Positions 1,046 through 27,375 of a DNA stretch of 29,961 bases are shown here, one piece after another. The DNA comes from a virus. The translations under genes and the position numbers were made by a program. The number at the start of each line of letters is the position of its first letter. Positions within the stretch are counted from its first letter, which is position 1. Under the pieces are notes generated by a model, which made no database searches, had not been told where the DNA came from, and saw nothing but the letters and a program-made list of their open reading frames with translations. The stretch lies in UHGV virus genome UHGV-0134758. The stretch is one strand, 5' to 3'.

Positions 1046-1466
1046 AATATAATCATGTGACCAATTATTATAATAATTTTAATGAATTATTTCTACTGAT
1101 TATCCAGTGTGTCTGGTGGTTTTCGGTATTATCTGCCGGAACCATGCCTCATCCAGCGAGTATTTGCTGCCGGGGTTATCCGGTTTTACGGTCACACCCT
1201 CGAGCCTCCGATTCTGGTCACGGCGGGTTTGTTATTTCCCGGTGCGTCGGATGACCACTGCCGTAACTTCTGCACCATTTTTGGGGGGGGCGGGATTCCA
1301 CTCCCACGCAACCTGCGCTTTTTGTGCAGCCTGTTTTGCTGCGCTGTCCCGGATTTTTGAGTTTCATTCTGCCCTCCCCCGATCCTATCAGGGACGACAC
1401 CCATCCACTTAAGCACGATGCCAAGACCATCAAGGAGCAGCGTCAGCGGTCCCAGCACAATGTTCT

Positions 1467-1510
1467 GCTTGACATCCTCCACGCCCTAAAGGACGTGGAG
1501 GATGTCAAGC
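1467..1510. repeat. perfect 17-bp inverted repeat (gcttgacatcctccacg / cgtggaggatgtcaagc) with 10-nt spacer
   Basis: Seen directly in sequence, anchored on the 1324..1563 ORF frame. The spacer ends also pair (cct/agg), giving a near-continuous 44-bp palindrome about 65 nt upstream of the holin-like start. Confidence 0.85.
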
Positions 1511-1573
1511 AACATGACCGGTTGAGAAGTTACTTTGCATACCATTACCTCCTGACAACGTAGGAGGGAACTT

Positions 1574-1903
1574 GTGCTTGACACACAGGAATTAGCTCCA
1601 GTTGCTATTGCGCTCCTGCTTTCAGTAATTGGTGGGATAGGCACGTTCCTGATGGATGTCCGAGACGGTCGCCAGTCTGGCAATTTGTTGGGATTGGTTA
1701 CGGAGATCTTTGTTGCAGTGACAGCTGGCGCGGTGGCGTACCTATTGGGGCAACACGAGGGCTGGGAGTTATCAATTACGTACTTAATGGTAACGATAGC
1801 CAGCAATAACGGTCATGAGGTGATTTCAGGGATGAAACGAGTGAATATCGATAGCATTCTGAATGTTCTTACAAGTTTGGTGAAAAAGGGAGGCGGGAAA
1901 TGA
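1574..1903 (+). CDS. holin-like small membrane protein (position of P1 lydA)
   Basis: 109 aa with 2-3 hydrophobic helices (LAPVAIALLLSVIGGIGTFL, LLGLVTEIFVAVTAGAVAYLL) and a charged C-terminal tail KKGGGK. GTG start 5 nt after AGGAGGG. First gene of an operon of overlapping ORFs. Confidence 0.7.
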   Translation: MLDTQELAPVAIALLLSVIGGIGTFLMDVRDGRQSGNLLGLVTEIFVAVTAGAVAYLLGQHEGWELSITYLMVTIASNNGHEVISGMKRVNIDSILNVLTSLVKKGGGK

Positions 1904-2343
1904 TTGGCTGGGGTGTATGCGTTCTTGCGTTAGCCTTAGCCGATCGCTATTTGCTAAAACGCAAGGACATCACGCATTTAGAACTTGGTGATGTGGAAAT
2001 TAAACCGGGTTTCATCCGGGTGCCGTTCAAATACCGGTCTAAATTCCCGTTTTTGCGCGGCGCAACGGTCAGATATTGGATCCGCGATGTTCAGAAGCCG
2101 ACGACAGTGATTGAAGGCGAACAACGTTGTTTGACGTCGGCTGAACAGGGCGAAAACAGTGAATGGTTGTACATACCCACTGAATATATGGGTAAAGGAG
2201 AGCGACTGTGGCATTTCAACGTCATGGTTACGCATGGCGACTCGTTCATTAACCCGTTGTATCGGATTTTCCCTGTTACTCAGCAAATCCGCAGAAGTTA
2301 CGTAATAAATCTCGCACAGGATGTGTCAGATGACGAAAAATAA
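1900..2343 (+). CDS. hypothetical protein, possible antiholin (position of P1 lydB)
   Basis: ATGA start/stop overlap with the preceding holin-like gene; hydrophobic N-terminus. Assignment is positional only. Confidence 0.55.
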   Translation: MIGWGVCVLALALADRYLLKRKDITHLELGDVEIKPGFIRVPFKYRSKFPFLRGATVRYWIRDVQKPTTVIEGEQRCLTSAEQGENSEWLYIPTEYMGKGERLWHFNVMVTHGDSFINPLYRIFPVTQQIRRSYVINLAQDVSDDEK

Positions 2344-2932
2344 GTATGCAACGGTCGATTTTGACCAAGTTAATGAAAAGGGGCTGAAATCCCTTATCGC
2401 GGCGATCAATAAAACCGGGGTTACGGTAATTGAGGTTGACTCCAGCAACCGAGCAACAACGAAAGATGGCGTTAAAGTTAAAACCGCAAAGCTGGTTCTT
2501 AACGACGGACAAATTCTTGCCATACAGGTAAACGATACTGGCGATATATCGTCTGTGAAACTGAATGGAAAAGCTATTCCTAACGCTCAGTCGCCGGATA
2601 TCAAGACGCTTGGTACCGTCATGGGACAGGCGGCCCGCAAAAACTCCGCAAAATTCCAGAAATCACTGATCGCCAAAGCGAAGCGTGTAGCCAATCCGGT
2701 AGACAAGAAACCGGCAGTTAAATCCAACTTTCAGCGCCTGCAAGAAGCAAAACAGCGGAATGCTCAGGTGGTTGCCGCTTATAAGTCCGCGCAGAATTCG
2801 GTGTCTTTCAATCAACAGCAGATCACTGATTTGCGGGCGAAGCTGGATAAGGAGACGGGCCGACTCAATAACGAAAAGGCACGGAATGGCGAACTCAAAC
2901 GTCGTCTTAAGCAACTGAAAGCAGGAAATTAA
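2330..2932 (+). CDS. hdf: Hdf-like protein (paralogue of a DarA segment)
   Basis: Shares blocks with the downstream 639-aa protein (AARKNSAKFQKSL vs LAEKNSAKFQRAQ, followed by a basic coiled-coil region). Start placed at the ATG at 2330 (AGG about 9 nt upstream); the track lists 2321. Confidence 0.6.
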   Translation: MTKNKYATVDFDQVNEKGLKSLIAAINKTGVTVIEVDSSNRATTKDGVKVKTAKLVLNDGQILAIQVNDTGDISSVKLNGKAIPNAQSPDIKTLGTVMGQAARKNSAKFQKSLIAKAKRVANPVDKKPAVKSNFQRLQEAKQRNAQVVAAYKSAQNSVSFNQQQITDLRAKLDKETGRLNNEKARNGELKRRLKQLKAGN

Positions 2933-8764: not shown

Positions 8765-8788
8765 CCCCGCCGATTGGCGGGGTTTGTT
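8765..8788 (+). terminator. rho-independent terminator
   Basis: ccccgcc-gatt-ggcgggg stem-loop followed by tttgtt, 6 nt after the stop at 8759. Confidence 0.7.
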
Positions 8789-9090
8789 CCTAGCGTGCCG
8801 TAAAATACTACCCTTCAGGTTTAATTGACATGGTGTTTTCAATGTTATGCTATAGATTCATTTTGCTTGCTAATTTATATCAAAATTTATTGAACCAATT
8901 GTTGAGTACATTTTAAATCAGCAACTCTTAAATTTTGCTAATTAATTAGTCAGCTATCTATCGCTGTGGTTGATATTAATGTGCTGGTGTAACGTGTTTT
9001 TATATTGTGCTGTTGTCTCTGGTTGCGATTTGGTCTTAGTGTTATTTCTTGCTCTGTTTATTAATCAATTGGTTTACAGTGATGTTTTTT

Positions 9091-25520: not shown

Positions 25521-26552
25521 CTAATCGCCATCTTCCAGCAGGCGCACCATTGCCCCTGTTTCACTATCCAGGTTACGGATATAGTTCATGACAATATTTA
25601 CATTGGTCCAGCCACCAGCTTGCATGATCTCCGGTATTGAAACTCCGGCGCGGGCCATATCTCGCGCGGCTCCGACACGGGCACTATGTCCAGACCAGGC
25701 CAGGTATCTCTGACCAGAGTCATCCTTAGCGCCGTAAATCAATCGATGAGTTGCTTCAAAAATCCCTTCCAGGGCGCGAGTTGATAGCTGGCTGGTGGAT
25801 GATGGCGAGGCAACACCATTTTTTCTGACCCGGCAAAACAAGTAGTTATTAGGATCATCAGCCACACCAGAGACGGAAATCCATCGGTCGACCAGTTTAG
25901 TTACCCCCAGGCTAAGTGCCTTCTCTACACCTGCGGTGCTAACCAGCGTTTTCGTTCTGCCAATATGGATTAACATTCTCCCACCGTCAGTACGTGAGAT
26001 ATCTTTAACCCTGATCCTGGCAATTTCGGCTATACGTAACAGGGTGTTATAAGCAATCCCCAGAAATGCCAGATTACGTACATCCTGGCAGCGATCGCTA
26101 TTTTCCATGAGTGAACGAACCTGGTCGAAATCAGTGCGTTCGAACGCTAGTGCCTGTTTTGCACGTTCACCGGCATCAACGTTTTCTTTTCGGATCCGCC
26201 GCATGACCAGTGAAACAGCATTGCTGTCACTTGGTCGTGGCAGCCCGGACCGACGATGAAGCATGTTTAGCTGGCCCAAATGTTGCTGGATAGTTTTTAC
26301 TGCCAGACCGCGCGCCTGAAGATATAGAAGATAATCGCGAACATCTTCAGGTTCTGCGGGAAACCATTTCCGGTTGTTCAACTTGCACCATGCCGCCCAT
26401 GACCGGCAAACGGACAGAAGCATTTTCCAGGTATGCTCAGAAAAAGCCTGGCGATCCCTGAACATATCCATCAGGTTCTTGCGAACCTCATCACTCGTTG
26501 CATCGACCGGCAATGCAGGCAAATTTTGGTGTACGGTCAGTAAATTGGACAT
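25521..26552 (-). CDS. cre: Cre tyrosine site-specific recombinase
   Basis: 343 aa, MSNLLTVHQNLPALPVDATSDEVRKNLMDMFRDRQAFSEHTWKMLLSVCRSWAAWCKLNNRKWFPAEPEDVRDYLLYLQARGLAVKTIQQHL...MVRLLEDGD. Essentially the P1 Cre sequence as I know it, with the cognate loxP about 420 bp upstream. Confidence 0.97.
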   Translation of the reverse strand: MSNLLTVHQNLPALPVDATSDEVRKNLMDMFRDRQAFSEHTWKMLLSVCRSWAAWCKLNNRKWFPAEPEDVRDYLLYLQARGLAVKTIQQHLGQLNMLHRRSGLPRPSDSNAVSLVMRRIRKENVDAGERAKQALAFERTDFDQVRSLMENSDRCQDVRNLAFLGIAYNTLLRIAEIARIRVKDISRTDGGRMLIHIGRTKTLVSTAGVEKALSLGVTKLVDRWISVSGVADDPNNYLFCRVRKNGVASPSSTSQLSTRALEGIFEATHRLIYGAKDDSGQRYLAWSGHSARVGAARDMARAGVSIPEIMQAGGWTNVNIVMNYIRNLDSETGAMVRLLEDGD

Positions 26553-26559
26553 TTAACAC

Positions 26560-26781
26560 TCAGATAATGGTTTTAAGTAAAGTGTACAGGATCGGCTCTG
26601 CCTTTACCTGTTTATGGTTCTCGTCATAGAAACGCCAGCGACCGCGCGTGCGTTCTATCTTTTCTTCACCGCGCGATAATGACAGTTGGCAACTATCACG
26701 ATCAAACCCTTTTGCCCGCCAGTAACCACGATTTTTCTCAAGCTCAAGATGAGTGGACACTTTAGCAGCTGAATATCCCAT
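26560..26781 (-). CDS. small ORF immediately upstream of cre (uncertain)
   Basis: 73 codons, AGAGGTG 4 nt before the ATG, TGA stop 7 nt before the cre ATG. No homology recognised; may be non-coding regulatory DNA. Confidence 0.3.
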   Translation of the reverse strand: MGYSAAKVSTHLELEKNRGYWRAKGFDRDSCQLSLSRGEEKIERTRGRWRFYDENHKQVKAEPILYTLLKTII

Positions 26782-26878
26782 TTTTCACCTCTGATTGATT
26801 GGTGGTGCTAAGTGCGCTACGCGAAATCTGGAGCACTAACACTGCCAACATTTCGCAGATTTTACGTAGCGCAACCTT

Positions 26879-26898
26879 GATCAAATGATCAAGTGATC
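26879..26898. promoter_or_regulatory. cluster of three GATC (Dam) sites within 20 bp
   Basis: gatcaaatgatcaagtgatc, with a fourth GATC near 26948. In the cre upstream region next to loxP. Confidence 0.45.
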
Positions 26899-26970
26899 AC
26901 TATTTGACCTGATAAGGTATTGAACTGTATGGATTTACAGGTAAATTGATCATGTTCAATAACCCTTAAG

Positions 26971-27004
26971 ATAACTTCGTATAATGTATGCTATACGAAG
27001 TTAT
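26971..27004. other. loxP recombination site (13-bp inverted repeats around an 8-bp spacer)
   Basis: ATAACTTCGTATA-ATGTATGC-TATACGAAGTTAT read directly, canonical loxP. Hand-counted, plus or minus 1 nt. Confidence 0.95.
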
Positions 27005-27047
27005 TAGGCCCGAAGAGGAGTTTACGTCCAGCTGCGCATAAAAATCA

Positions 27048-27064
27048 AGAATTATTAGAGCAAT
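27048..27064 (-). promoter_or_regulatory. C1-operator-like 17-mer (15/17)
   Basis: agaattattagagcaat between loxP and coi. Confidence 0.5.
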
Positions 27065-27130
27065 AAATTTTGAGAGAAAAATCCCACTCCACCAGCAAAA
27101 AACTGGATTGTTTTTCATAGTTGTTTGACA

Positions 27131-27147
27131 ATTGCTCTAATAAATTA
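27131..27147 (+). promoter_or_regulatory. C1-operator-like 17-mer (16/17) directly abutting a TTGACA -35
   Basis: ttgaca-attgctctaataaatta; candidate autoregulated promoter of the coi-c1 operon. Confidence 0.55.
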
Positions 27148-27375
27148 TAGTTTTGCCGCCGTTTCGTAATATGACATCAAGGCCATTTTCAGGTGTTATA
27201 GAGCGGCTCAGAAGGAAATGAGCAAACAGGGAAACCTTATACAAACGGCATTACGGCTATGCATTGCTCATCTTACACACAGCGCAATGTTGTTAGATAA
27301 CCCCAGCATGGATCATGGGTGAAACAGTAGGTCAGAGCTTCAGGCTCTGTGTTGCAAATACAGTGAGGCATAATT

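Follow-up and report, generated by a model that had tools for sequence, protein, structure and literature searches.

The stretch between loxP and cre in the UHGV virus genome UHGV-0134758 contains a long imperfect inverted repeat (26813..26873), which appears to be a conserved regulatory element ending ~30 nucleotides (nt) upstream of the start codon that opens the recombinase operon. The whole stretch of DNA that was analysed, 29,961 nt in length, is referred to as the window. Comparison of the interval 26400..27100 with phiW39, P1, P7, SJ46 and other P1-type phage-plasmids showed 97-98% nucleotide identity. The genes cra and cre, their promoters and the Dam methylation sites are shared with the P1 loxP-cre interval, in agreement with the setting that a preliminary description, made from the letters of the window, had given to this region. 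Judged by its sequence, the window is a P1-type phage that is P7-like within the loxP-cre interval. Very probably, this interval controls the cra-cre operon in a natural phage-plasmid of this type, with the repeat as a putative regulatory element. The cra gene, the Dam-sensitive promoter pR1 and the multiple cre promoters are already published or annotated (1986; P1 and P7 genomes). The inverted repeat is apparently undescribed and appears to be the sole part of the interval outside existing annotation.

The inverted repeat upstream of the operon

The downstream arm (cre-sense CAGATTTCGCGTAGCGCA, 26813..26830) and the upstream arm (cre-sense TGCGCTACGTAAAATCTG, 26856..26873) are 18 nt each, are complementary at 16 of the 18 positions and flank a spacer of 25 nt (26831..26855). 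These measurements bear out the arms of about 17 base pairs (bp) with two mismatches and a 25-bp spacer that were noticed at the outset. Repeats of such quality (18 nt, at most two mismatches and a spacer of at most 60 nt) are found at two places in the window; shuffling gave a mean of 0.03 such repeats per window, with any at all in 2% of the shuffles. A second strong inverted repeat is located at 1466..1511, where CTTGACATCCTCCACG-N10-CGTGGAGGATGTCAAG is perfect (18/18, with a 10-nt spacer) and lies near an ATG at ~1515.

The repeat between loxP and cre is unannotated in the records X03453, AF234172 and AF503408. At 26813..26822, X03453 reads CGTACCAC as compared with CGTAGCGCAC in later records, leaving two G missing in the downstream arm and the repeat shortened. 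The missing bases fit gel compression in a hairpin-forming stretch, which may explain why the full repeat was never annotated.

Sequence comparisons of five lineages, in which the surroundings are saturated with changes, showed that 23 of the 36 arm columns are invariant, compared with none of the 25 spacer columns (Fisher p = 7e-8). The downstream arm is better conserved than the upstream arm, with 14 of its 18 positions invariant over the five lineages, and carries no annotated signal. The upstream arm holds the annotated -10 hexamer of pR1 (TAAAAT, 26859..26864). The arm-to-arm spacing is unchanged between the lineages. A similar picture was obtained within 62 unique P1-type sequences, where 6 of the 36 arm columns vary, through rare variants, vs. 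12 of the 25 spacer columns (p = 0.011). No other stretch of the interval is as polymorphic in these sequences as the spacer, which has common alleles at several columns and no indels. By these alignments, the spacer is fixed in length and unconstrained in sequence. In every case, the repeat comes after the GATC cluster and ahead of the operon's first gene, which is cra in P1, a gene for 68 amino acids (aa) in three lineages and a 356-aa gene in another.

A palindrome that arose by chance, or a relic without function, could appear conserved only through the pR1 -10 hexamer and close relatedness, since the upstream arm overlaps this hexamer and many of the compared sequences are closely related. 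However, it is the downstream arm, with no annotated signal, that is better conserved, and no stretch of the interval varies more than the spacer. Moreover, Dre-like phages, other viral contigs and plasmids have these arms around unrelated spacers and within unrelated flanks. A chance origin is highly improbable on these grounds.

Copies of the repeat on phages and plasmids

Viral contigs were scanned with a pattern derived from the arm cores, GCTACGYRAA-N33-37-TTYRCGTRGC, which matched at least 120 contigs. Among the matches listed, ~88 are P1-type; 32 others have no lox context and carry these arms at the 55-nt span, around spacers of unrelated sequence. At 14 or more of these non-lox loci, the element ends exactly 32 nt before the gene of a 343-aa Dre-like tyrosine recombinase, with no cra between them. 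The Dre-like gene has ~64% nucleotide identity to dre of phage D6, and D6 itself retains the downstream arm only. One Dre-like locus is arranged as a recombination site, four GATC, the element and then the gene; on a D6-like (Dre-type) contig, the four GATC fall within ~35 bp between a rox-like site and the recombinase gene. The D6-like Dre/rox arrangement, with its rox-like site, four GATC, 55-nt element, 32-nt interval and recombinase gene, closely parallels that of the window. Unlike in the window, no cra homologue intervenes before the recombinase gene, and the GATC cluster is positioned ~55 nt from the element rather than adjoining it.

In many phage contigs, including those in which the gene encodes a Cre- or Dre-like recombinase, the element is separated from the start codon by 28-34 nt. 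Two uncultivated viral contigs that encode a serine recombinase (L259 and L279) have two copies of the element ~2.2 kb apart, which flank the tape-measure gene (8768..8822 and 11022..11076 in L259; 8550..8604 and 10772..10826 in L279). A start codon, that of the tape-measure gene or that of a second gene, comes 28-29 nt after the end of each copy, and one of the copies is preceded by a terminator-like hairpin. An earlier labelling of the L259 group as 'Felix-like' was withdrawn, as the true Ounavirinae genome Sf14 is without the element, so the group is not Felixounavirus. A ribosome site, AGAGGTGAAA, follows the element in the P1, D6, Dre-like and L259-type groups alike.

The Dre-type version of the element was found at 150 plasmid places and at no chromosomal place in 5426 complete Escherichia coli genomes. 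In plasmids of ~33 kb, the element has an H-NS-family gene on one side and a type I toxin gene on the other, near hha. In large plasmids, it is located between a DUF1173 gene and psiA; on one large plasmid, the arms (TGCGCTACGTGAAATCTGA and TCAGATTTCGCGTAGCGCA) are nearly identical to those of the window. Examples of the plasmid element, which spans 55-61 nt, are found at 2501..2561 of L363 (p1493-1) and at 2499..2559 of L364 (a plasmid of E. coli ATCC BAA-196). The plasmid element has a single orientation relative to the flanking co-directional genes.

One large-plasmid copy, upstream of psiA in an apparent leading region and in a fixed orientation to its neighbours, resembles the Frpo/ssi elements. 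An Frpo element has its -35, -10 and UP elements within the stem of a long hairpin (PMC11541004). The stem of the present element is 15-19 bp with no larger hairpin around it, and a Frpo-type single-strand promoter was rejected; a further difference from Frpo/ssi is that phages injecting double-stranded DNA also carry the element.

The element appears to consist of two inverted copies of a 15-18-nt motif with the core GCTACG-YR-AAWTCTG, the outer GCTACG/CGTAGC ends of which are 55 nt apart. Its carriers include P1-like and D6-like phage-plasmids, other phage contigs, and conjugative and other plasmids, and its sequence was not found printed in the literature searched. Tentatively, the repeat of the window can be regarded as one copy of an undescribed ~55-nt regulatory family that would be confined to enterobacterial mobile DNA and would act through a common factor or RNA mechanism.

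Possible modes of action of the repeat

The arms are most likely recognised sequence-specifically by a factor. Eight of the 15 arm pairs never vary, and at the positions that do vary, each arm changes independently of the other. Covariation analysis showed 92.9% of positions paired vs. 91.2 +/- 1.0 in shuffles, with 28 of 500 shuffles as high. The covariation score was 0.153 vs. 0.130, a value reached by 47 of 500 shuffles, and the RNAalifold covariation term was +0.14, so the covariation is not significant. The conservation of the arms, the eight fixed pairs, the non-significant covariation and the independent changes argue for sequence-specific recognition over pairing alone.

The promoter pR1 (named P3cre in later annotation) has two annotated alternative -35 hexamers, TTGATC at 26879..26884 and at 26887..26892. 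With its annotated -10 hexamer within the upstream arm, the start point of pR1 would lie in the spacer and its transcript would be without the upstream arm. The promoter P4cre (minus strand; -35 TTGATT, 27043..27048; -10 TAAACT, 27019..27024) is located past loxP and reads through loxP to cra and cre. A protein on both arms would repress or occlude pR1 or stop P4cre transcription from reading through. The longer transcript of P4cre could also form a 5' leader RNA hairpin by pairing of the arms.

Several observations weigh against recognition of the arms by a protein. No known operator consensus was recognised in the arms. The pR1 hexamers are entered in X03453 as putative only and have a poor spacing (14 or 22 nt), and the placement of the arms on either side of the pR1 start point depends on that annotation. 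No open reading frame (ORF) is present within 90 nt after the plasmid element, and one mechanism may not suit all contexts. Both arms lie within the P4cre transcript, favouring an RNA role. The 99-nt leader folds at -32.4 kcal/mol (z = -3.85 vs. shuffles), and for 29 of 38 unique elements folding is more favourable on the sense strand. Imperfect pairs on the gene-sense strand of most non-P1 lineages are G.U, with no A.C among them.

A leader RNA hairpin is a possible explanation, in which the repeat would affect the stability, processing (e.g. by RNase III) or translation of the mRNA of the gene ~30 nt downstream, the arms being read by an RNA-binding factor or nuclease. The P4cre read-through and the stable stem speak for such a hairpin, as does the fixed spacing of 28-34 nt to the start codon, followed by the AGAGGTGAAA site, in very different genomes. 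The gene-sense strand has 46 G.U vs. 22 A.C pairs, with G.U only in the Dre-like, Klebsiella-type and L011/L268/L259 groups, and the single orientation of the plasmid element points in the same direction. However, the covariation is non-significant and most pairs are invariant despite the saturated surroundings. The P1 cluster has one imperfect pair of each kind, G.U and A.C; on the sense strand of the Salmonella, Cronobacter and L100 lineages, these pairs are A.C. The transcript of pR1 as annotated would miss one arm of the stem, and the plasmid copies have no ORF close behind them. Searches of Rfam gave no match at E <= 1 in the window interval and none at the gathering score in seven other loci.

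Alternatively, the element could be a portable promoter cassette, with yAGAwT, at the beginning of the downstream arm, as the -10 hexamer and the upstream arm as a recognition or regulator site. The second base A and the sixth base T of this hexamer are invariant in 17 diverse elements, and the phage element is always positioned just upstream of a ribosome site. The L259 element that follows a terminator-like hairpin with a T run has, by reading of the sequence, TGAACA-18 nt-TAGATT, and pR1 had been assigned to this very stretch of P1. However, no -35-like hexamer is present at the right distance in the P1-type, Salmonella-type and Dre-type elements, and a scan for consensus sigma-70 promoters was blank at the repeat. 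The annotated pR1 -10 hexamer sits in the other arm, and the mirror symmetry of the arms is left unexplained by a promoter. Such a cassette is unlikely in view of these points.

The models are thus ordered as protein recognition of the arms, the leader hairpin and the promoter cassette, with chance excluded. Other candidates for the repeat were tried and rejected. A terminator scan of 26400..27250 found no intrinsic terminator, and no T run follows either arm. For an ArgR/PepA accessory site, the published Arg box is 97 bp from loxP and, by inspection of the window, appears to fit the c1 side. The arms were also compared by eye with a Cre half-site, the C1 operator, LexA, IHF, CRP and PaaX sites, the ParB box A and the DnaA box, none of which was convincing.

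The cra-cre operon, its promoters and Dam sites

Annotation was transferred from P1-type records through an ungapped match, in which the window coordinate equals the locus coordinate + 25200. The cyclization recombinase gene cre (25521..26552, minus strand; named cre in the P1, P7 and phiW39 records) encodes 343 aa that differ from P1 Cre at a handful of positions only. The 73-codon ORF upstream of cre (26560..26781, minus strand) starts with an ATG at 26781..26779 and ends with a TGA stop at 26562..26560. A Shine-Dalgarno sequence, GAGGTG (26791..26786), is placed 4 nt before the ATG, next to the leader motif CCAATCAATCA (26792..26802). The gap between the stop and the cre ATG (26552..26550) is exactly 7 nt, GTGTTAA. 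The coordinates of this ORF, its good Shine-Dalgarno and its distance to cre are as first described. It had been taken as either an unannotated gene or regulatory DNA read as an ORF; it is both a gene and regulatory DNA, and it is not unannotated, being the known gene cra (ORF1; upf0.2 in P7). X03453, the record of Sternberg et al. 1986, has it as 'pot. ORF1 (aa 1-73)' with a ribosome-binding site, and the curated P1 genome AF234172 names it cra, 'putative cre associated function'.

A single residue distinguishes the Cra of the window from that of P1. Cra is 59-68% identical in Salmonella-, Klebsiella-, Cronobacter- and mixed Enterobacteriaceae-type P1-like elements. Conservation of the 73-codon frame in relatives had been proposed as a way to judge it, and the frame is intact in all four divergent lineages. 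Comparisons with these lineages gave proportions of nonsynonymous differences (pN) of 0.21-0.28 and of synonymous differences (pS) of 0.67-0.82, the synonymous sites being saturated. The differences are dominated by third codon positions (e.g. 17/13/44 by codon position), much like those of cre, and the variable columns among the 62 unique P1-type sequences are distributed as 8/11/27. A genome-wide CRISPR interference (CRISPRi) study found cra non-essential, with an efficiency of plating of 0.66 upon knock-down (PMC10695390). Thus, cra is a real, non-essential protein-coding gene under purifying selection.

The Cra family is very small: at 50% identity, 1.8 billion representatives yielded 16 clusters. 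Cra belongs to PHROG 804, of the unknown-function class, and Pfam and PADLOC searches gave no match. Two structure predictions of moderate confidence showed an alpha+beta protein, and a fold search returned generic alpha+beta matches only. Some records title Cra 'putative Cre-associated regulatory protein'. Distant homologues in Acinetobacter and Cronobacter plasmids have no adjoining recombinase, and the description 'Cre-associated' is therefore not family-wide. The 73-aa protein is often named 'creatininase' at NCBI, which is wrong for a phage protein of this size without such a domain; the label probably derives from the gene symbol cra.

In P1-like relatives (L004-L013, ~1188..2504 in locus coordinates), a 356-aa gene is located between the repeat and cra, usually together with the 68-aa gene, with the stop codon of the 356-aa gene overlapping the ATG of cra. 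Neither gene is present in P1, P7 or the window. The two genes belong to PHROG 7674 and 19934, for which no function is given, and have no Pfam or PADLOC assignment. In the relatives, CCAATCAATCA followed by a GAGG-type ribosome site precedes every gene start of the operon, and the CCAATCA motif of the cra leader is invariant across lineages. These repeated sites could be the points at which the 356-aa and 68-aa genes were lost or gained.

The 7-nt gap between cra and cre and the TGA stop are conserved in length across lineages, with the intervening sequence free to change, and the cre ribosome site is weak by reading of the sequence. Because the gap is conserved and the cre ribosome site is weak, the geometry of the junction suggests translational coupling of cra and cre.

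Four promoters would read toward cre, namely P4cre, controlled by the C1 repressor, pR1, with Dam sites over its -35, and pR2 and pR3 inside cra. The mRNA that encodes Cra would arise only from the two distal promoters, P4cre and pR1. AF234172 renames pR1, pR2 and pR3 as P3cre, P2cre and P1cre, and the hexamers of all three in the P1 records can be read in the window. The promoter pR3 (26564..26588, minus strand; mapped from AF234172 and X03453) has its -35 TGTACA at 26583..26588 and its -10 at 26564..26568. This -35 and a -10-like hexamer within the C-terminal codons of cra are kept in all the divergent lineages. The promoter pR2 (26676..26705, minus strand), mapped from the same annotation, has the -10 CATTAT at 26676..26681 and the -35 TTGATC at 26700..26705, which is present in the P1 lineage only and is not conserved outside it. 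This second cre promoter could be Dam-sensitive, because its -35 hexamer contains GATC. The GATC of pR2 is missing from the divergent lineages.

Farther upstream, the P2coi promoter (26920..26947, plus strand; mapped from AF234172 and AF503408) is directed away from cre and is overlapped by a LexA box (CTGT-N8-ACAG, 26923..26942), which is annotated in AF234172 and kept across lineages. Dam site 1 of the cre regulatory region (26948..26951) lies in a TGATCA that is likewise invariant across lineages. loxP is at 26971..27004, as shown by an exact 34-bp match and by annotation. Past loxP, AF234172 annotates P4cre and the C1 operator Oc1e (27048..27064), which 'may control expression of cra and cre'; all three sequence elements of this annotation are unchanged in the window (27064..27019). 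The genes imcA/imcB, coi (69 aa) and c1 (283 aa) are located beyond loxP on the plus strand, as indicated by their ORFs and the P1 annotation. Natural variants of lox were seen in the relatives: the Salmonella-type site (L004-L006, position 967) has the spacer ACACACAT vs. GCATACAT, and one lox arm of the L011 group (L011-L013, position 1201) is TTAACTTCGTATA.

The GATC cluster next to the repeat consists of three TGATCA hexamers 8 bp apart (26878..26899), with Dam sites at 26879, 26887 and 26895. Three GATC within 20 bp had been noticed early on (26879..26898), and this is the sole such run in the window. A run of this kind occurs somewhere in the 30 kb in 86 of 1000 dinucleotide-preserving shuffles, and the cluster is only weakly unusual when taken alone. 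Relatives have the cluster at the corresponding position. The GATC adjoining the repeat is invariant in all lineages, each of which has at least two GATC in the ~25-bp block. Three sites are present in 57 of the 62 unique P1-type variants, and three variants are without one 8-bp TGATCACT unit. P1 has two sites, with GACC replacing the third, and P7, the window and most relatives have three. Clustered Dam sites, which are also present in the Dre-type locus, look like an old feature of the recombinase operon and fit the published Dam control. The TGATCA unit of the cluster is also repeated in the P1 pac site (PMC10028697). The cluster was considered as a pac-like pacase site, with the same hexamer but a different spacing, 8 bp vs. 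7-15 bp in pac; there is no evidence of a link.

The GATC at 26879 and 26887 fall in the two alternative pR1 -35 hexamers and are described in AF234172 as 'Dam methylation site 2/3 within the regulatory region of cre'. The P7 genome AF503408 has the Dam sites of P1 and one more, which is the third GATC of the window. The methylation-sensitive control of cre that the preliminary description had proposed from the cluster agrees with this P1 and P7 annotation and was already established. Sternberg et al. 1986 reportedly described Dam regulation of cre, as the title states. The overlap of GATC with the core promoter suggests that pR1 is methylation-sensitive, and the difference in its activity between dam+ and dam- hosts is taken from that title. 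Dam-sensitive promoters with GATC in the -35 include pIN of the IS10 transposase and, less certainly, trpR. By analogy with pIN, the GATC overlapping the -35 TTGATC would let the methylation state modulate polymerase binding, and a burst of expression from newly replicated or injected DNA would follow. In contrast to the single site of such promoters, two to four tandem TGATCA are present here, and the hexamer spacing of 14 or 22 nt is unusual.

Overall, the gene order, loxP, cra (73 aa, with 1-3 substitutions) and cre of the window are the same as those of P1 and P7, as are pR1-3, P4cre with Oc1e, the LexA box, P2coi and the positions of the Dam sites. The window differs from P1 in the P7-type third GATC (GTGATCAC vs. 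GTGACCAC in P1) and in a few spacer and synonymous positions. The 73-codon ORF and the Dam sites add little beyond what is known, and the repeat family is a modest new lead. If the family is real, the natural expression of Cre and Dre would be tied to a control circuit common to unrelated mobile elements. A factor for the repeat, if found, would explain the natural control of the most widely used site-specific recombinase and might reveal a regulatory module common to phages and plasmids.

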